From positions 1-6,803 of the forward strand of contig CAYXSZ010000083.1 in NCBI GenBank assembly GCA_964468425.1: a stretch of DNA of 6,803 nucleotides, written 5' to 3'. The position numbers and the translations under genes are program-made. Shown here piece after piece: positions 1 to 6,803 of this stretch. The stretch is from Candidatus Woesearchaeota archaeon. GTDB lineage: Archaea; Nanobdellota; Nanobdellia; Nanobdellales; Nanobdellaceae. The notes under the pieces are model-generated. The model saw only the letters and a program-made list of their open reading frames with translations, made no database searches and had not been told where the DNA came from. The first letter of the stretch is position 1, and every line of letters begins with the position of its first letter.

Positions 1-257
1 ACAAGTTCAGCGATCTTCGATTGGAGCTCAATATTGCTTTTTATTAACGAGTTGACTATGTCTTGATTTATTTTCGCATATTCTATAAGAGCATTCGCGC
101 TTGGAGAGTGTACTGGCTTATTATTGGTATGTATATTGTTGTCAGTTTTAATTGCAATTTCTTCTCGGAGAGAGTGGATAGATTGTTTTAACTCTTCGAC
201 CTCCTCTTCGAGCTTGCGGATAGGATCTATTGATATAATTTCGTATTCTTCTGGCAT
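1..257 (-). CDS. Hypothetical coiled-coil-like protein, N-terminal 85 codons only (3' end lies beyond the left window edge)
   Basis: Absent from the ORF track because it has no stop inside the window. Minus-strand ATG at 257..255 is preceded in frame by TAA (275..273). The frame stays open to position 1: MPEEYEIISIDPIRKLEEEVEELKQSIHSLREEIAIKTDNNIHTNNKPVHSPSANALIEYAKINQDIVNSLIKSNIELQSKIAEL. Its K/E/I-rich composition matches neighbouring genes. An A/T box is centred about 25 nt upstream. No family recognised. Confidence 0.45.
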   Translation of the reverse strand, partial: MPEEYEIISIDPIRKLEEEVEELKQSIHSLREEIAIKTDNNIHTNNKPVHSPSANALIEYAKINQDIVNSLIKSNIELQSKIAEL

Positions 258-277
258 AAGTAATATGTGTCCTTACG

Positions 278-286
278 TTTTTATAT
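278..286 (-). promoter_or_regulatory. TATA-like box (minus strand ATATAAAAA) upstream of the 1..257 gene
   Basis: A/T-rich element centred about 25 nt upstream of the ATG at 257. No Shine-Dalgarno-like purine run lies between them. The same spacing is seen at other starts in this window. Confidence 0.3.
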
Positions 287-300
287 GGGTTTTGTTAAGC

Positions 301-326
301 AAAATTGTTAAACGAAAATTAAAAAA
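301..326 (-). terminator. Oligo-T tract after the thermosome stop codon (candidate archaeal terminator)
   Basis: Minus strand reads TAA-A-TTTTTT-AA-TTTT-CGTTTAACAA-TTTT directly after the stop at 330..328. Archaeal termination typically uses oligo-T runs. Not tested. Confidence 0.3.
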
Positions 327-327
327 T

Positions 328-1968
328 TTATTCAAGGTCGTAGTCGCCTTCCTCGGAGCCTGGTCCTTTACTCTCGCTTTCTTCTTTCTTTACAGCTGCT
401 ATTACGTCATCTATCTTGAGAATCATACACGCAGCTTCTGTAGCTGACTTTACGGCTTGTGTTGTTACATTTGCTGGCTCCAGAACGTTTAGTTCCCACA
501 TATCTGCTACTTTTCCGTTGATCGCGTCGACTCCGTACCATATTTTTCCTTCTTCGTGTGCCGCTCTTAACTCAGCCATTACTTCGATTGTGTCCATACC
601 TGCATTTTCGGCTAGCGCGGAAGGTATTGCCTCAAGTGCGTCAGCGAAAGCTAGCATAGCTAGTTGGATCTTGGATGGGTGTCTTTTAGCTTCCTCTCTC
701 AATCTTCTCGCAAGTTCGATTTCGATAGCTCCTCCTCCTGCAATTACCTTTCCATATTTGATTACGGTAGCTACATCCTTGACTGCGTCTTGGATGGATC
801 TCTCAATTTCATCTGCTACGTGCTCAGAACCCGCTCTGATCAAAATTGTGACTGCTCTTGGATTCTTACATCCGGTTACGAATATCATATTTTCGTCTGC
901 AACCTTCTTTTCTTCTACAGCTTCAGCGTATCCTAAATCTTCTGGGGAGAGGTCGTCTATAGAGGTAACGATTTTAGCTCCCGTTGCTTTTGCGAGCTTT
1001 TCCATATCAGACTTCTTTACCCTTCTTACAGCGAGAATTCCATATTTAGCTAAGTAATGGGCAGCTAAATCGTCAATTCCCTTTTGGACAAACACTACAT
1101 TTGCTCCGACTTCTTTTATTTTATCTACCATTTGTTTAATCATTTCTTGTTCTTTTCTCAAGAAGGCTTCAAGTTGTTCTGGACTTGTAATGTTAATTCT
1201 CGCGTCTGTTTCGGTTTCTTTTACTTCTAGAGCATCGTTGATTAATGCAATCTTCGCTTCCTTGACAATTTTAGGCATTCCTGGGTGAACTCTTTCCTTG
1301 TCTATTACGATTCCGTCAATTAATTCGGTGTCCTCTATTCCTCCCCCTACTCGTTTTTCGATCTTGATAGCATCGAGGTCTACAATTACTCTATCGTCTT
1401 GTTGAGCGGTTACCTTCTTTACGGCATTTACAACGAGATCTGCGATCTTGTCCGCATACATTCCAGCTATCTTTGAAGACAAAGCGGATTTGGCTATTTT
1501 CTTAAGTGCTTCGGCATCGTCAATCGAAACGTCCTTCGCTATTTCGCTTACAGTCTTCTCCACAAACTGCATAGCTCTCTTGTAACCTTCTATAATGACT
1601 GTTGAATGGATGTTGTTGTCTAGCAAATCTTCTGCTTTTCTTAGAAGTTCTCCAGCGAGAACTACCGATCTTTTAGTTCCATCTCCAACTTCAGTATCCT
1701 GCGTCTTCGCGATCTCGATAATTAACTTCGCTGCCGGGTGCTCTACTTGCATTTCGTCTAAAATTGTGTATCCATCGTTTGTAACGATTATGTCTCCAAG
1801 CTCGTCAACTAGCATTTTGTCCATTCCTCTTGGTCCGAGGGAGGTCTTTAGGATTTCGCCAATGATGACCGCTGCCATGATGTTCGATCTCAAGGCGTCC
1901 CTACCTACGGTTCTTGCATATTTTTCGGGAAGTACCAAAATGGGATACAACGTTCTCTGCTCCGCCAT
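328..1968 (-). CDS. ths: Thermosome subunit (group II chaperonin, Cpn60/TCP-1 family)
   Basis: Long ORF with group II chaperonin motifs: [29 protein letters not shown].., [22 protein letters not shown]. The first M in the track (1986) is a TTG codon; ATGs occur at 1977 and 1968. The TATA box at 1990..1997 predicts a transcription start near 1968, so [15 protein letters not shown]... is the preferred N-terminus. The maximal ORF is 328..1986. Confidence 0.95.
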
Positions 1969-1989
1969 AGTATTCATATACAACAAAGG

Positions 1990-1997
1990 TTTATAAA
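1990..1997 (-). promoter_or_regulatory. TATA box TTTATAAA for the thermosome gene
   Basis: Close match to archaeal TATA boxes (a palindromic octamer), centred about 25 nt upstream of the ATG at 1968. This implies a leaderless or near-leaderless mRNA. Confidence 0.45.
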
Positions 1998-2025
1998 CTG
2001 TATTGAGAAATCTCGTAGAATTTGT

Positions 2026-2043
2026 CTTTTTAACGCTAAAAAG
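2026..2043 (-). terminator. Perfect 7-bp inverted repeat (CTTTTTA-acgc-TAAAAAG) containing a T5 run; candidate terminator of the Fap7-like gene
   Basis: The repeat was read directly from the sequence. It lies 37-54 nt past the stop at 2080, and a further T5 on the minus strand (2058..2062) lies between them. Its function is inferred only. Confidence 0.3.
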
Positions 2044-2079
2044 CTTCGAGATTAACTAAAAATGCGCTCAAAATGAGTA

Positions 2080-2574
2080 TTATTTCTTATTATTAATATA
2101 TCTGATTATTTTGTTCGCTATTTCTTCAGGGGTTTCCTTACTGGTATCGAACGTAATGTAAGGTTTGCTCTCTTCTTCGAGCTCGGATTCGATTACTTCC
2201 AGGTTCTGAGCCCAGATATTCTCGAATATTTTATGATAAGGGTATTTTCGCTGAGACAATCGCTTGTAAAGATCGTTTGGGTCTGCTTTAAGCAAAATGA
2301 AGAGATCCACGAGTTCTTTTGGAAGCAAGTGTGCGAAGGTGCCTTCTACGATAACGTTATCTTCAGAATTTTTTATATGTTCTGAAAGCTTTCTAATTAG
2401 AACATTTTCGTCGACCACAAAGGTTTGGTAAGCTTCGTCGTACTCTAAATGAAGGTTTTGAGACTTTGCGAAGTCTAAAATGTTTATTACGCGAGCTTTA
2501 AGTCTCTTAGAAAGTTCTTTAGCGAGAGTAGTTTTTCCAGATCCGGGAACTCCTGTAATCACTATTACAACCAT
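2080..2574 (-). CDS. Fap7/AK6-type P-loop nucleoside kinase/NTPase (putative adenylate kinase involved in small-subunit rRNA maturation)
   Basis: 164 aa. Walker A ITGVPGSGKTTLAKEL is at the extreme N-terminus. EGTFAHLLP, ADPNDLYKRLSQRKY and KIFENIWAQ resemble the archaeal Fap7 pattern (GHLSHLLP; RL..RGY...KI.EN..AE). Size and layout fit AK6/Fap7 better than a classical adenylate kinase. Confidence 0.8.
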   Translation of the reverse strand: MVVIVITGVPGSGKTTLAKELSKRLKARVINILDFAKSQNLHLEYDEAYQTFVVDENVLIRKLSEHIKNSEDNVIVEGTFAHLLPKELVDLFILLKADPNDLYKRLSQRKYPYHKIFENIWAQNLEVIESELEEESKPYITFDTSKETPEEIANKIIRYINNKK

Positions 2575-2593
2575 TTAAAGGAGCTGGTGAAAG

Positions 2594-2601
2594 TATTTTA
2601 T
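2594..2601. promoter_or_regulatory. Central A/T box (TATTTTAT / ATAAAATA) possibly shared by the divergent Fap7-like and aIF5A genes
   Basis: The 49-bp divergent spacer (2575..2623) has this octamer centred 23.5 nt from the minus-strand ATG (2574) and 26.5 nt from the plus-strand ATG (2624). No SD-like sequence lies adjacent to either start. Confidence 0.35.
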
Positions 2602-2623
2602 GCTTTATGGGTTTTAAAGTTGA

Positions 2624-3019
2624 ATGGTGGAAATTCAGGTTAAAAAGATTGGAGAGTTGAAGCCCGGTAACTACATTTGGTACAACAACAAGGTTTACAA
2701 GGTCGTGAGTGTTGAAACTTCCAAGGTTGGAAAACACGGAGCTGCGAAGGCGAGGGTGGAAGCGGTCTCGTTTGACGGAGACAAAATTGTTCTAATTAAA
2801 CCAACTCACGATAACATTGATGTTCCAATGATAAAGAAGATCAAGGGTCAAGTAATATCCGTTCTTTCAGAGGATAGAGTCATGATTATGGATATGGATA
2901 CTTACGAGACCTTCGAGGCGGTGGTCAACGAAGACCTTCGCGGTAAGCTAAGTGAAGGTCAAAGAGTTGTAGTTTGGGATATTGGAGAGCGAGTTGTGAT
3001 GCAGGCGTTCAAGGATTAA
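2624..3019 (+). CDS. eif5a: Translation initiation factor 5A (aIF5A)
   Basis: 131 aa with the (deoxy)hypusination loop TSKVGKHGAAKA; the modified Lys would be K37 (2732..2734). IMDMDTYETFE and the overall length match archaeal aIF5A. Confidence 0.95.
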   Translation: MVEIQVKKIGELKPGNYIWYNNKVYKVVSVETSKVGKHGAAKARVEAVSFDGDKIVLIKPTHDNIDVPMIKKIKGQVISVLSEDRVMIMDMDTYETFEAVVNEDLRGKLSEGQRVVVWDIGERVVMQAFKD

Positions 3020-3624
3020 AAATCTGCTTTTGGCTCAATTTTAACAATTTTTCCATCTTTCAACCCCTCTAGAAAAGCTCTAAAATCTTCTAAAGTGTAT
3101 TTTAAACTCTCCTCGTAAACGTCGTTATACGTGCTCTCTAGAAGCGATATGTACTCTACCTCTTTCATCAACCTGTTGTATAAGTTTGTTCTCGTTTTTT
3201 CATAGAGCAGTCTAAACAACCTTCTTCTACCCTCATAATAATCTCTGAGGTCTTCAGACAATATCCTTTCGAACAATTCGTCTATTGCTTTGCTTACGGA
3301 GCTTTCCTTATCTTTTTCAAAACCGGGAATGGATAATGAAAATATCAAAAAGTTCTCATACACGTACTCTATTCCAAAGTACACATCGTACCCGATTCCG
3401 TACCTTTCGCGAATTGTTTGGAAGACTAAGGAAGAAGCTCCTCCGGAAACGAACTTTTCAAAAGCGCTGGCGAGGAGAAATTTATTCATAGGTACCTTGA
3501 AGTTCAAGGCAAAATAAACTTGGTTGTTCGTGTCCCTATGCTCTATTATATCTTTCCCTTTACCTACAGTTGGTTTCTTTTTTTGAAACTTCTTTTTCTT
3601 CCAAGTTTGAGAAGTATTTCTCAA
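3016..3624 (-). CDS. M16 peptidase, C-terminal half (Peptidase_M16_C-like); continuation of 3560..4231 in the +1 frame
   Basis: QVYFALNF...VSGGASSLVFQTIRERYGIGYDVY matches the M16 pattern (q.h..lg...LGGGmsSrLf..lRek.GLaYsvy) that normally follows the catalytic domain in a single polypeptide of about 400 aa. The 5' 65 nt overlap the upstream ORF. The ATG at 3624 is probably not a real start. Confidence 0.75.
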   Translation of the reverse strand: MRNTSQTWKKKKFQKKKPTVGKGKDIIEHRDTNNQVYFALNFKVPMNKFLLASAFEKFVSGGASSLVFQTIRERYGIGYDVYFGIEYVYENFLIFSLSIPGFEKDKESSVSKAIDELFERILSEDLRDYYEGRRRLFRLLYEKTRTNLYNRLMKEVEYISLLESTYNDVYEESLKYTLEDFRAFLEGLKDGKIVKIEPKADF

Positions 3625-4231
3625 CTAGTTCGATGTGCTTTTCTGAGAAGTCGCCTTCAAGCAAAATAAACATGTTCTTTGGAGTGTAATATTTGGCTTT
3701 GAACTCCTCTAGGTCTTCTTTAGAAGTGCTTTCTACAGTTTCTCTATAACCAGTAATTGGATCTCCGTAGTCGCTCTCTCCAAAAACAGCTTTTGGGATT
3801 AGCTCGCTCATCCTTTTTTCAGGATCATTATTATAGATCTCTAATTCAGATAAAACTACTTTCTTCTCGTTGTTAAATTCAGTTTCTTTATACTTTTCGT
3901 TTTCAAACATGGAATACAAGATGTCTAAAACCTTTGGAAAACCTTCCGGAATGACTTCTACTATGTAACAGGTTAAATAAGTACTTGTAAATGCGTTTAC
4001 AATCCCGCCATTTAGTTCTAAACCCATGTTTATTTGCTCAGCATCGTATTTATGGTTAGACTTAAACATCATGTGTTCTAGAAAATGCGATATTCCTCTC
4101 TTGTCTTTAGGTTCGTAAACACTCCCTATTTTCACTCCAATTGCGATGCCAACGGTGCTCGCGTCTGGAATTCTTAAAGTATACAATGTTAATCCATTGT
4201 CAAGTACTTTCTTTCCAAAACCATCGGACAT
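3560..4231 (-). CDS. M16 (pitrilysin-family) zinc peptidase, N-terminal catalytic half; truncated by a frameshift
   Basis: Inverted zinc motif HFLEH (4073..4087), followed by NAFTS..T.Y and the distal LSELE region, all typical of the Peptidase_M16 domain. The ORF ends 18 nt after an A7 run, and the reading continues in the +1 frame. Confidence 0.85.
   Translation of the reverse strand: MSDGFGKKVLDNGLTLYTLRIPDASTVGIAIGVKIGSVYEPKDKRGISHFLEHMMFKSNHKYDAEQINMGLELNGGIVNAFTSTYLTCYIVEVIPEGFPKVLDILYSMFENEKYKETEFNNEKKVVLSELEIYNNDPEKRMSELIPKAVFGESDYGDPITGYRETVESTSKEDLEEFKAKYYTPKNMFILLEGDFSEKHIELVEKYFSNLEEKEVSKKETNCR
3578..3584 (-). other. A7 homopolymer (T7 on plus strand) marking the frame change inside the M16 peptidase gene
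   Basis: Minus strand reads GTT TCA AAA AAA GAA ACC AAC TGT AGG TAA in frame 0. Removing one A gives GTT TCA AAA AAG AAA CCA ACT GTA GGT AAA, which joins the two halves. Confidence 0.6.
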
Positions 4232-4247
4232 CTCGAGTAATAATCTA

Positions 4248-5141
4248 TTACTCTTTTTTAACTTTCTTGCTGATCTCGTCCGCGATCCTTATGGGCTCGG
4301 GATATCTTCCCTTAATCCAGAACTCATCGCTCAACTCCTTGGCAGTTTCAACCGATACTTTGTGTCCCGGAGAAACATAAATCACATTTCCATATTTCTC
4401 TAAAACATGACCTATTAACTGGTTATTTTCATCGAAAATTCTGTTACCTTGAATTTTTCCATACAAATGCTTCCTTGTAACTCCGATCGTAGGAATGTCT
4501 AAAAGAACTCCGACGTAGCTGGCTAGTCCTAGTTTTACGGGATGCGCAACTCCCTGTCCATTTACAAAGAGGATGTCAGGAGCTTTTATCTTGTTAAACG
4601 TTTTTAGAATGGGTTCTCCTTCTCTAAAAGCTAAAAATGTTGGAATATATGGAAAAGTTACCCGCTCTTCGAAGACATAGTATTCTACTAAATTTAGTTC
4701 GTTATCCAAGAGAACGTAAACTACTTTAGCCTTATTATTTTTGTAACTTAGATCTACACCACCAATCAACTCTAACTTCGAGAAATCGTCTTGTAGTTTT
4801 AACCTTTTTGAAAGTTCTACTTGCATTTTTCTTAATTTCTCAAGGGGTTTTTCGCCAATCCTAAAGTCATTAAATAGATGCTTTTTTAAATTAACTTTTC
4901 CATTTACAATTTCAACACCTTCGCACTTCAGTCTAATTAACTGCTCTAAGTTTTTTATCTCTCCTTTTTCGTTTACAACCCTCCACCAAGGAATATCTGA
5001 ATGTTTTATAGCTTGGGCTACGAATCTGGTAGCATAAGGACTTCCTAGCGCTAAAGCTAAAGTTTTGAATGTGGTTACCTTACCTTTCGGAATTTGGAAT
5101 ATTAGGTCGCGTAAAATCCTGTTTACGTCCGGAAGATCCAT
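4248..5141 (-). CDS. nfi: Fusion protein: N-terminal alkyltransferase-like (ATL / MGMT DNA-binding) domain plus C-terminal endonuclease V
   Basis: Residues ~8-80 (IPKGKVTTFKTLALALGSPYATRFVAQA...IPWWRVVN..G....LKCEGV) match the MGMT/Ogt C-terminal domain pattern (IP.G.v.tY..iA...g.p.a.RaVg.A...iPCHRVv..G.....LL..EG). Residues ~95-297 carry EndoV motifs: GGVDLSY, PYIPTFLAFRE, NGQGVAHP, GLAS, PTIGVTRK, VSPGH. Confidence 0.9.
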   Translation of the reverse strand: MDLPDVNRILRDLIFQIPKGKVTTFKTLALALGSPYATRFVAQAIKHSDIPWWRVVNEKGEIKNLEQLIRLKCEGVEIVNGKVNLKKHLFNDFRIGEKPLEKLRKMQVELSKRLKLQDDFSKLELIGGVDLSYKNNKAKVVYVLLDNELNLVEYYVFEERVTFPYIPTFLAFREGEPILKTFNKIKAPDILFVNGQGVAHPVKLGLASYVGVLLDIPTIGVTRKHLYGKIQGNRIFDENNQLIGHVLEKYGNVIYVSPGHKVSVETAKELSDEFWIKGRYPEPIRIADEISKKVKKE

Positions 5142-5162
5142 TAAAAAGAGATTAAAGAAAAA

Positions 5163-5170
5163 TTAAAAAT
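5163..5170 (-). promoter_or_regulatory. TATA-like box (minus strand ATTTTTAA) for the ATL-EndoV gene
   Basis: Centred about 25 nt upstream of the ATG at 5141. No SD-like sequence intervenes. Confidence 0.35.
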
Positions 5171-5209
5171 AATGCCTGCAGATCTCTCAGTAACATTTAT
5201 ACATTCGAA

Positions 5210-5222
5210 AACGCGTCGCGTT
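5210..5222. repeat. 13-bp perfect palindrome AACGCG-T-CGCGTT
   Basis: Read directly from the sequence. It is a conspicuously GC-rich island in an AT-rich gap, about 40 bp upstream of the putative EndoV TATA box. Function unknown. Confidence 0.5.
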
Positions 5223-5444
5223 GTACTTCTCACATAACTCTGAATATTTTTTACATAAATTTATAACTTATTCCTTAGGGTTGACTCTTGAGAGGCTCGC
5301 AGTAGATTTTTTATGACAATAGATTTCGACGACTTATAGAGTATTCCTTTGATTTTAAGTAATGGCTCGAGAATTTGATCTAGCTCTGAACTAGAAATCT
5401 TCTTAGTTTCTGAATTAGCATTACTATCTTGTAAATCATGTAGA

Positions 5445-5478
5445 AAACAATTAATGTGAGTTTGAATTATGATTGTTT
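5445..5478 (-). terminator. AT-rich imperfect hairpin ending in a T4 run, downstream of the permease-NTase stop
   Basis: AAACAAT (5445..5451) pairs with ATTGTTT (5472..5478), and an inner TAAT/ATTA pairing is separated by a 2-nt bulge. On the minus strand the 3' arm runs into TTTT. AT-rich stems of this size arise easily by chance. Confidence 0.2.
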
Positions 5479-5524
5479 AGCTAGATAACTTGCATAATCT
5501 TAGGATATTACAAACAATTATAAC

Positions 5525-6803
5525 CTACAATGCGATATACTTTTTAATGGATTTTAAGATTTCCTCTTTCTCGTTTAACCTAAAGATGTGGACATCTATA
5601 GGATATTTCTGAAATTTGTGTAGAATCTCCTCAGCGAGCTGGACTGCGCTCTCATCATCCTTTACAAAAATCAAAAGATCTACATCGCTTGAAGACTCTC
5701 TTTCTCCTCGTGCTAGACCTCCCGCCAAGAAAACTTCTGAGCCAGGATACCTTTCAGAAACAAACTCTTTAATTTTTGGAACCCACGTCTCCCAAGAATT
5801 AATTAGCTTTTCTCTTTTCTCAAGACGAGTGTCGAGATGATATGCGATTTCTCTCTGAGCAAACTTCCTATATACAATCTCAATTATAAAAGCTAGGACA
5901 ATGGCGGATACAAAAACTATAACTCCAACTATATTAGTTTTAATATTTTTAGCTAAAAGAGTTATAAGAGCAACAAAAGAAAGAATTATAGAAGTTATAG
6001 ATAAATATTTGTTGATTTTTGCTTGTTTTCTTAATATGAAACCTGCGAGGTTCACTGAAAAAAAGATTAAGAGAAAACCTGCGCTTCCAATCAGCGAGAT
6101 CTCTTCTAAATTGAGTAAATTTGCTGAAAGAATTGAAATAAGAGAAATTATTATCAATCCCTCATAAGCTTGCTTCCAAACTTTTCTTTCTAAAGCTTCT
6201 GGAAGTTGACCGTATTTCGATATTATATAAGAAATTCCTACAGTTCCGAACAAAGTAGCATTGATTGCAGACGCTGTCGAAGCGAGAGCTGCGATGCTGA
6301 TTAAAACAAAACCTAGTTTCCCTAGTATTGGTTGAGCAACAGCTGCTAGTGCGTAGTCCTTCGCTTTTACAACTTGTTGAACTGGGAGAGCGCTAACCGT
6401 TACGATTGCTATTAAAATATAAAGAATAGTTACAAAAGTTATCGAAGCGTAAAAAGCTTTCGGAATGTCTTTCAAGTTTTTGGCTTCCGTTGACGCGTTT
6501 GCTATTAGCTCAAAGCCTTCATAAGCTAGAAATATGATCATTCCTCCGACCAGGACATTTAGAATATTTTGAGATGGTAAAAAATATGAAATAATGTCAA
6601 AGTTTTTCAAAGAAACTAATCCTGCGAGCGCAACTAAAGATAAAGCAATTAGTTTAAAAATAACTAGGGCATCTTCAGTTTTACCTGTTATGTATGCTCC
6701 GAGAGCGTTAATCAGCGTGAAAAACAGAATAATTCCAGTTATTGCTAAATGCTTGGGAATTCCCAAAAGAATACTTGCATATGCGCCAAACGCATACGAA
6801 TAC
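5525..6803 (-). CDS. APC-superfamily amino-acid/polyamine permease fused to a C-terminal minimal nucleotidyltransferase (pol-beta superfamily) domain; 5' end beyond the right window edge
   Basis: Multiple hydrophobic helices and FLAYEGFELIANASTEAKNLKDIPKA (compare the APC pattern f.G.E.....aeE.knP.k.iP.A). The last ~109 aa (5528..5854) are soluble and carry VFLAGGLARGERESSSDVDLLIFV (hG[GS]x9-13DhDh) plus a downstream IDVHIF. The M at 6766 in the track is a TTG codon. The frame is open to 6803 (YSYAFGAYASILL...), so the gene is truncated by the window. Confidence 0.9.
   Translation of the reverse strand, partial: YSYAFGAYASILLGIPKHLAITGIILFFTLINALGAYITGKTEDALVIFKLIALSLVALAGLVSLKNFDIISYFLPSQNILNVLVGGMIIFLAYEGFELIANASTEAKNLKDIPKAFYASITFVTILYILIAIVTVSALPVQQVVKAKDYALAAVAQPILGKLGFVLISIAALASTASAINATLFGTVGISYIISKYGQLPEALERKVWKQAYEGLIIISLISILSANLLNLEEISLIGSAGFLLIFFSVNLAGFILRKQAKINKYLSITSIILSFVALITLLAKNIKTNIVGVIVFVSAIVLAFIIEIVYRKFAQREIAYHLDTRLEKREKLINSWETWVPKIKEFVSERYPGSEVFLAGGLARGERESSSDVDLLIFVKDDESAVQLAEEILHKFQKYPIDVHIFRLNEKEEILKSIKKYIAL

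Follow-up and report, generated by a model that had tools for sequence, protein, structure and literature searches.

A Nanoarchaeal Endonuclease V Fused to an Alkyltransferase-Like Domain Without the Reactive Cysteine

Introduction

Alkyltransferase-like proteins (ATLs) are homologues of the DNA alkyltransferases (AGTs), related to their C-terminal domain only, that lack the reactive cysteine, most of them carrying tryptophan in its place, as does the ATL of Escherichia coli (PMC10779285, a 2023 review). According to the same source, the fold common to AGTs and ATLs binds duplex DNA by the minor groove, and the cysteine of AGTs is activated via the histidine of the PCHRV motif and a glutamate. 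Fusions of such domains to endonuclease V (EndoV) are the closest described systems to the gene studied here, an open reading frame (ORF) of 297 amino acids (aa) on contig CAYXSZ010000083.1 (assembly GCA_964468425.1), of which positions 1 to 6,803 were analyzed (hereafter, the window, 6,803 nt). AGTendoV of Ferroplasma acidarmanus is a bifunctional alkyltransferase/endonuclease V fusion (Kanugula et al. 2005, via PMC10779285), described in the review as an AGT C-terminal domain without the AGT N-terminal domain, followed by a linker and then EndoV, an organization shared by the protein described here; the AGT N-terminal domain is absent from EndoV fusions in general (PMC10779285). An ATL-EndoV fusion in archaea was mentioned in 2009 (Tubbs et al.), and a speculation credited to Pegg 2011 gives the EndoV part an XPG-like action or a role in faster DNA translocation (both via PMC10779285). 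Compared by description only, these archaeal proteins share with the present one a Cys-less domain joined to EndoV.

For the nuclease itself, comparison can be made with Thermotoga maritima EndoV, whose active site is formed by D43, E89, D110, and H214 (PMC3025561), with a wedge at P79-Y80-I81-P82 and a hypoxanthine pocket made up of G83, L85, G111, G113, G121, and L142 (PMC4650699).

The gene was identified as a member of the archaeal AGT-EndoV fusion family, namely its nanoarchaeal ortholog (Nanopusillaceae-type, from marine hydrothermal vents), in which the reactive cysteine has been lost. The reading favored here, with modest confidence and from sequence and modelling, is that of an inosine-directed EndoV with a non-catalytic DNA-binding N-terminal domain (N-domain). 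The N-domain would be unable to accept alkyl groups and would act as a helix-turn-helix module that lies against the nuclease and binds DNA, perhaps also flipping bases, and the EndoV domain is a predicted inosine-specific nuclease.

Domain Architecture and Predicted Fold

The gene is encoded on the minus strand, with an ATG start and the stop codon inside the ORF, and the codons CCT TGG TGG AGG GTT at 4991..4977 specify P51-W52-W53-R54-V55, which confirmed the ORF and the motif given in an earlier note on this DNA. The same note had proposed an EndoV fused to an AGT-C-type domain, and both Pfam matches were significant: PF01035 (DNA_binding_1) on aa 13-68 (E 1.3e-12, 47.8 bits, cut-off 27) and PF04493 (Endonuclease_5) on aa 109-288 (E 6.3e-51, 173 bits, cut-off 23.4). 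The N-domain match starts at aa 13, with no AGT N-terminal domain ahead of it. NCBIfam endonuclease V equivalogs also matched the fusion protein (E ~1e-47), yet under their strict cut-offs, and a weak Endo_dU match at the C-terminus is expected as an echo of the related DUF99 family. An AlphaFold2 model built with 78 homologues as input was very confident (pLDDT 96.8, pTM 0.91) and thus implies a fixed arrangement of the two domains, that is, a confidently predicted rigid two-domain body.

Comparisons of the C-terminal domain with solved structures by Foldseek placed it with T. maritima and E. coli EndoV (3hd0, 2w35, and 4xpu; rmsd ~1.7 Å, E 1e-21), with which it shares 37-38% identity, the wedge, the hypoxanthine pocket, and the equivalents of D43, E89, and H116. 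For the N-domain, the best structure matches outside the EndoV fold were ATLs (2kif, 3gx4, and 3gva; target TM ~0.72). In sequence searches of solved structures, the N-domain matched the ATL of Vibrio parahaemolyticus (2kif, E 8.6e-10) and Atl1 of Schizosaccharomyces pombe (3gva, E 1.8e-8), and true alkyltransferases only at E > 0.1. A profile of the N-domains of the nanoarchaeal clade (29 fusions, described below) gave the same picture, with ATL structures at E 1.5e-13 versus AGTs at E >= 2e-4, and the ATL-like character proposed in the earlier note is supported. The stand-alone ATLs concerned (S. pombe Atl1, 3gva/3gx4; V. parahaemolyticus ATL, 2kif; E. coli YbaZ; E 1e-13 to 1e-12) have in common with the N-domain the Trp at the Cys position, the helix-turn-helix, the Arg finger (in this protein), and a C-terminal 'EG[IV]xI...L..Y.[WF]' pattern. 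However, they differ from it in being unfused and in having Tyr25, where Phe is found here; the N-domain also shows a 4-residue deletion ahead of the motif and, compared with Atl1, lacks seven residues after it, and L65 stands opposite Arg69.

The Acceptor-Cysteine Position and the PWWRV Motif

In HMMER alignments to solved structures, W52 falls on the Cys of IPCHRV in Saccharolobus (Sulfolobus) solfataricus OGT and in Ada-C, as well as on Trp56 of S. pombe Atl1 (VPWHRV) and the Trp of the V. parahaemolyticus ATL (LPWFRV), which bears out the assignment of W52 to the acceptor position in the earlier note. Within the clade, position 52 is W in 26 members, I in two, and F in one, and position 53 is W in 24. 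The glutamate of the Cys-activating network has an equivalent, E74, that is invariant in the clade, and the histidine equivalent is replaced by W53. Compared with the Cys-type AGTendoV fusions, the present protein has W52 for Cys and W53 for His, along with Phe for the flipping Tyr and deletions of four and five residues in the two pocket loops.

A cryptic transferase, with another cysteine as alkyl acceptor, could be imagined from the one Cys of the N-domain (C73) and from the CPWWRV motif of some relatives. However, C73 is unique to this sequence, being K, E, R, or N in relatives; the Cys two residues ahead of the Trp occurs in 5 of the 29 clade members; 17 of the 29 have no Cys anywhere in the N-domain; and no N-domain Cys is conserved among the 29. 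The idea is effectively refuted, no other Cys being able to stand in for the lost acceptor.

The second Trp had been regarded as atypical for ATLs. A profile search with the nanoarchaeal N-domains retrieved 120 stand-alone proteins of ~100 aa, annotated as 'MGMT family protein' or 'YbaZ', in which the motif was PCHRV in 46, PWWRV in 42, PAHRV in eight, PWQRV in five, PWHRV in three, PWFRV in two, and PWYRV in two; the search seeds on shared 5-residue words, so the PWWRV share is over-sampled. Despite this inflation, PWWRV is clearly not rare, being the second commonest motif and occurring in dozens of independent clusters, and the supposed peculiarity of the second Trp was not upheld.

Distribution and Repeated Loss of the Cysteine

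The identical protein (P0001) was found on four independent metagenome contigs, one of them labelled hydrothermal vent. The closest named relatives, with 51-62% identity, are Nanopusillaceae metagenome-assembled genomes, Nanoclepta minutus, Nanobsidianus stetteri, Nanopusillus acidilobi, Nanobdella aerobiophila, and strain YN1, all with the same architecture and PWWRV or a near variant, as is true of every Nanopusillaceae genome recovered. Nanoarchaeum equitans was not among the matches listed, its genome not having been checked separately. Both Pfam domains were recorded in 117 of the 120 best homologues, the other three being P0013, a truncated protein of 226 aa, and P0014 and P0020, Nano-clade proteins whose W-type N-domain is present in the alignment. 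Two-domain homologues span Thermoplasmata, Bipolaricaulota, Planctomycetes, and Thermoproteota, among others.

Among the 119 fusions that could be aligned, the acceptor position is Cys in 69 and another residue in 50. These counts, together with the W-type domain in every Nanopusillaceae genome match, show that the architecture is widespread. The view of the earlier note that an ATL-type fusion would be a different arrangement is not supported either, because the review dates archaeal ATL-EndoV to 2009 (PMC10779285); the arrangement had been noticed, though not characterized. The note was right that an active AGT-EndoV fusion is known from F. acidarmanus.

A neighbor-joining tree built on the EndoV domain groups the nanoarchaeal fusions, none of which has the Cys, as one monophyletic clade, and three more Cys-less lineages arise separately: a Thermoplasmata-like lineage (PIHRV, PTHRV, PLHRV, and PKHRV), a Bipolaricaulota-like lineage (PSHRV, PTHRV, PWHRV, and TWYRV), and a single sequence, P0085 (PYFRV). 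AGT-EndoV fusions have accordingly lost the acceptor cysteine on four or more separate occasions. The homology between the N-domains of the Nano-type and Cys-type fusions extends from end to end and takes in the LFxDF linker (hhalign probability 99.8, E 7e-29); in a set of 78 fusions, the linker residues F90 and F93 hardly vary. Two clade members, P0030 and P0031, have kept PIHRV and an AGT-type loop of 24 residues and look like evolutionary intermediates, so that the Cys was probably lost in place. In our reading, the fusion had a single origin, at which the AGT-C domain was active; several losses of the Cys in place would have followed, each with a later deletion of the pocket loop.

Two further observations concern the family. 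Many Cys-type fusions (e.g., P0045, P0051, and P0060) have PCYKV or PCYRV for PCHRV, the network His being replaced by Tyr and the Arg often by Lys. In addition, P0121, a protein of 97 aa on a contig of 1785 nt, is a stand-alone Nano-type N-domain with PWWRV and short loops that ends in the linker just past LFxDF, ahead of the expected start of an EndoV domain; the gene may be split, or its call may be truncated. Split genes are a known habit of Nanoarchaeota.

Pocket Hallmarks and the Role of the N-Terminal Domain

The hallmark residues and the post-motif loop differ among the classes of fusions (loop lengths in this comparison leave out end residues). The 69 Cys-type fusions have Y at the base-flipping position in 68 and R at the arginine-finger position in all 69, with a post-motif loop of 24-26 residues. 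By comparison, in the 29 nanoarchaeal fusions the first position is F in 23 and Y in six, the second is K in 25 and R in four, and the loop has 19 residues in 26 members. The Thermoplasmata-like Cys-less fusions (n = 10) keep Y and R in all ten members with a loop of 19 residues, and the Bipolaricaulota-like ones (n = 8) have F and R in all eight with a loop of 18. In all three multi-member Cys-less clades, therefore, the post-motif loop was independently cut from 24-26 to 18-19 residues, and the change from Tyr to Phe occurred in two of the three. Stand-alone relatives have Tyr at position 25 in 119 of 121 and Arg at position 39 in 117 of 121. Their two pocket-flanking loops typically have 16 and 25-28 residues, versus 12 and 20 by the same count in the fusion protein; without end residues, the post-motif loop measures 24-27 in the stand-alone relatives and 19 here.

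Judged by these hallmarks, the N-domain does not look like a canonical ATL, having Phe for Tyr, Lys for Arg in most clade members, and two short pocket loops. It is nevertheless conserved, with a mean pairwise identity within the clade of 53% (63% for the EndoV domain) and with I17, P18, G33, and E74 invariant. The domain thus appears to be still under constraint, presumably for a job that needs neither the Cys nor the pocket, since it has been conserved though both the Cys and the pocket loop are gone.

The alternative is that the protein is a true ATL tethered to a nuclease, in which the N-domain flips and holds O6-alkylguanine unrepaired and EndoV nicks nearby in cis. Such a protein would provide self-contained excision of alkyl lesions in a genome-reduced symbiont, comparable to the recruitment of nucleotide excision repair (NER) nucleases by ATLs. 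Its Trp at the Cys position is that of Atl1 and the E. coli ATL, PWWRV is common to many stand-alone proteins of ATL size, the domain is kept in every Nanopusillaceae genome recovered, and an XPG-like role of EndoV has been speculated for such fusions (PMC10779285). Two points tell against a general DNA-binding module and leave lesion binding some probability: in sequence (also with the clade profile) and in structure, the N-domain is matched best by ATLs, and R39 is kept in this protein.

However, the pocket itself argues the other way. The Atl1 loop on which Arg69 sits has no counterpart here, L65 facing that residue, and Arg69 is reported to contact the alkyl group (Wilkinson et al. 2012). 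The post-motif loop of 19 residues is short beside those of both Cys-type fusions and stand-alone relatives, the flipping Tyr is Phe in this protein as in most of the clade, the Arg finger is Lys in 25 of the 29, and two other Cys-less clades acquired the same loop deletion on their own, which suggests a decaying pocket and not a refined one. The pattern of repeated loss fits decay of the lesion pocket better than specialization. A tethered ATL is the chief alternative, one that we consider possible but less probable than the favored reading. Of the lesion-sensing module suggested in the earlier note, the ATL-like Cys-less domain on EndoV stands, and the missing pocket loop, together with the relaxation at the Tyr and Arg positions, weakens the case for sensing. 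General anchoring or positioning on DNA seems more likely than Atl1-like recognition of O6-alkylguanine, because the Arg69 pocket loop is deleted and the flipping Tyr and Arg finger are relaxed across the clade.

The Endonuclease V Domain and Asn194

Most of the residues known from T. maritima EndoV have counterparts in the C-terminal domain (Table 1). The hypoxanthine-pocket equivalents L170, G195, G197, G205, and L226, plus H200, are invariant in the 29 clade members. The domain differs from the T. maritima enzyme in having Asn194 for D110, Arg223 for K139, and Thr168 for G83 (a position that is Thr or Ser in the clade, as it is in many archaeal relatives), and in the extra N-terminal domain. 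At the H214 position, Asp is shared with E. coli EndoV and with ~30% of EndoV family representatives, and the H214D variant of T. maritima EndoV keeps inosine-specific cleavage with lower non-specific activity (PMC3025561).

Asn194 was examined as a possible sign of a dead nuclease. The Mg2+ of T. maritima EndoV is bound directly by D43 and D110 (PMC4650699). N194 aligns with the engineered Asn of the top structure match, 6ozf, which according to its PDB title is a D110N enzyme crystallized on uncleaved inosine DNA. The nuclease could therefore be slow or dead, because Asp110 binds Mg2+ and D110N holds intact substrate. No biochemically characterized EndoV with a natural Asn at the D110 position was found, cluster names included. 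From the invariance of N194 in the clade and the D110N crystal, a double pseudo-enzyme could be proposed, with both centers disabled (W52 for Cys, N194 for Asp), that does no more than bind damaged DNA as a sensor or shield.

The distribution of Asn at this position points in another direction. An exhaustive HMMER search with the EndoV domain, clustered at 50% identity, yielded 150 family representatives, in which the D110 position is Asp in 89, Asn in 47, and another residue in 14. The N-type enzymes are mostly ordinary stand-alone proteins of ~200 aa, the named ones being metagenome-derived members of Hydrothermarchaeota and Nitrososphaerota, and of the 47, D43 is kept in 46, E89 in 45, Y80 in 46, and H116 in all 47. 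They are argued to be functional because the remaining catalytic residues are almost perfectly conserved, which would be unexpected in dead enzymes; in the clade, D130, E174, and D288 are likewise invariant. A dead nuclease was dropped as the leading explanation on these grounds, nearly a third of the diverse representatives (47/150) carrying Asn while keeping the other catalytic residues, and the double pseudo-enzyme appears very unlikely. Asn194 is taken as the mark of a natural EndoV subfamily, probably one compatible with catalysis.

One other difference goes with the Asn. The K139 position is Lys in 89 of 89 D-type enzymes, whereas the N-type ones have K in 23, R in 13, Q in six, T in three, and others in the rest. 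Among fusions, Asp occupies the D110 position in all 88 of the non-nanoarchaeal proteins examined, so that the nanoarchaeal protein differs in this respect from the Cys-type AGTendoV fusions. Compensation by an Asp at the H214 position (an 'Asp swap' with D110) was also considered and rejected, as it is not strict: N-type enzymes have His at the H214 position in 31 cases and Asp in 14.

A role directed at RNA was weighed as well, in which the EndoV domain would cleave inosine-containing RNA and the N-domain would be an RNA/DNA-binding accessory. EndoV of Pyrococcus furiosus, E. coli, and human cleaves such RNA. However, neither the sequence nor the neighborhood (aIF5A, M16 peptidase, and thermosome) gives a hint of RNA processing, and the AGT/ATL fold is a binder of the minor groove of duplex DNA (PMC10779285), which makes this role highly improbable. 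The inosine-directed EndoV with a DNA-binding, non-catalytic N-domain is kept as the favored reading.

Table 1. Coordinates of the fusion gene and of its domains and key residues in the window.
Feature	Position	Strand	Basis
Complete fusion gene (297 aa), Cys-less AGT-C/ATL-like domain joined to endonuclease V	4248..5141	minus	ORF list, two Pfam domains
N-domain (aa 1-93) with the AGT-C/ATL helix-turn-helix fold; LFNDF linker motif, aa 89-93	4863..5141	minus	PF01035, clade profile, hhalign, Foldseek
F25, base-flipping Tyr position (Atl1 Tyr25, hAGT Tyr114)	5067..5069	minus	alignment
R39, arginine-finger position (Atl1 Arg39, hAGT Arg128)	5025..5027	minus	alignment
PWWRV, aa 51-55; W52 at alkyl-acceptor Cys position, W53 at His position	4977..4991	minus	sequence read, alignments to OGT, Ada, Atl1
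Endonuclease V domain, aa 109-288	4278..4817	minus	PF04493, phmmer to T. maritima EndoV E 3e-37, Foldseek
D130, metal-ligand Asp (T. maritima D43)	4752..4754	minus	alignment, invariant in clade
PYIP wedge motif, aa 164-167 (T. maritima P79-P82)	4641..4652	minus	invariant in 29 clade members
E174, active-site Glu (T. maritima E89)	4620..4622	minus	alignment, invariant in clade
N194, Asn at T. maritima metal-ligand Asp110 position	4560..4562	minus	aligned to D110 of 3hd0, 2w35; invariant 29/29
D288, T. maritima H214 position	4278..4280	minus	alignment, invariant in clade

Genomic Context

The fusion gene lies between an amino-acid permease ORF and a gene for an M16 peptidase, beyond which aIF5A, a P-loop kinase-like protein, and a thermosome subunit are encoded. 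The neighborhood of EndoV fusion, aIF5A, and M16 peptidase (2624..5141 in the window) is conserved across Nanopusillaceae genomes, with varying order and orientation, and terrestrial relatives have rpl15e, SufC-like, SufBD-like, and RadA genes upstream in place of the permease. No repair operon is evident in the gene neighborhood, here or in relatives, and no tRNA or Rfam RNA family was found within the window.

Two neighboring ORFs deserve mention on their own account. The M16 peptidase gene (3016..4231, minus strand) is read in two overlapping frames of 223 aa and 202 aa with a break near 3575-3600, where a run of seven A residues falls midway through the Peptidase_M16_C domain. Two independent assemblies (L001 and L002) have this sequence without gaps, and relatives have one intact ORF of 395-411 aa; the split gene could be a pseudogene, a slippage site, or a homopolymer error common to the assemblies. 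The ORF at 5525..6766 (minus strand) combines the amino-acid permease, matched only from profile position 122 on, with a C-terminal nucleotidyltransferase (NTP_transf_2); gene calls in this region differ by assembly, with three separate genes in L001.

Significance

The fusion described here is an uncharacterized but expected ortholog in its lineage. It would give a first handle on Cys-less alkyltransferase domains that are hard-wired to a nuclease, for which an XPG-like action of EndoV after ATL binding has been raised in the literature as speculation only. A more daring proposal is that the AGT-C domain has a second, Cys-independent job in EndoV fusions, which would explain why the domain was kept after at least four losses of the Cys and three loop deletions. 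In genome-reduced Nanoarchaeota, the Trp-Trp version might then set the lesion range of the nuclease or its choice of strand or site, for instance by directing nicks to alkylated or distorted guanines, as a one-protein substitute for ATL and NER; as a whole, this proposal is rather improbable and is put forward as speculation. Concrete hypotheses may be drawn from two patterns in these families: the repeated loss of the Cys, with the same pocket-loop deletion after each loss, and an EndoV subfamily with Asn that leaves the K139 position free to vary.

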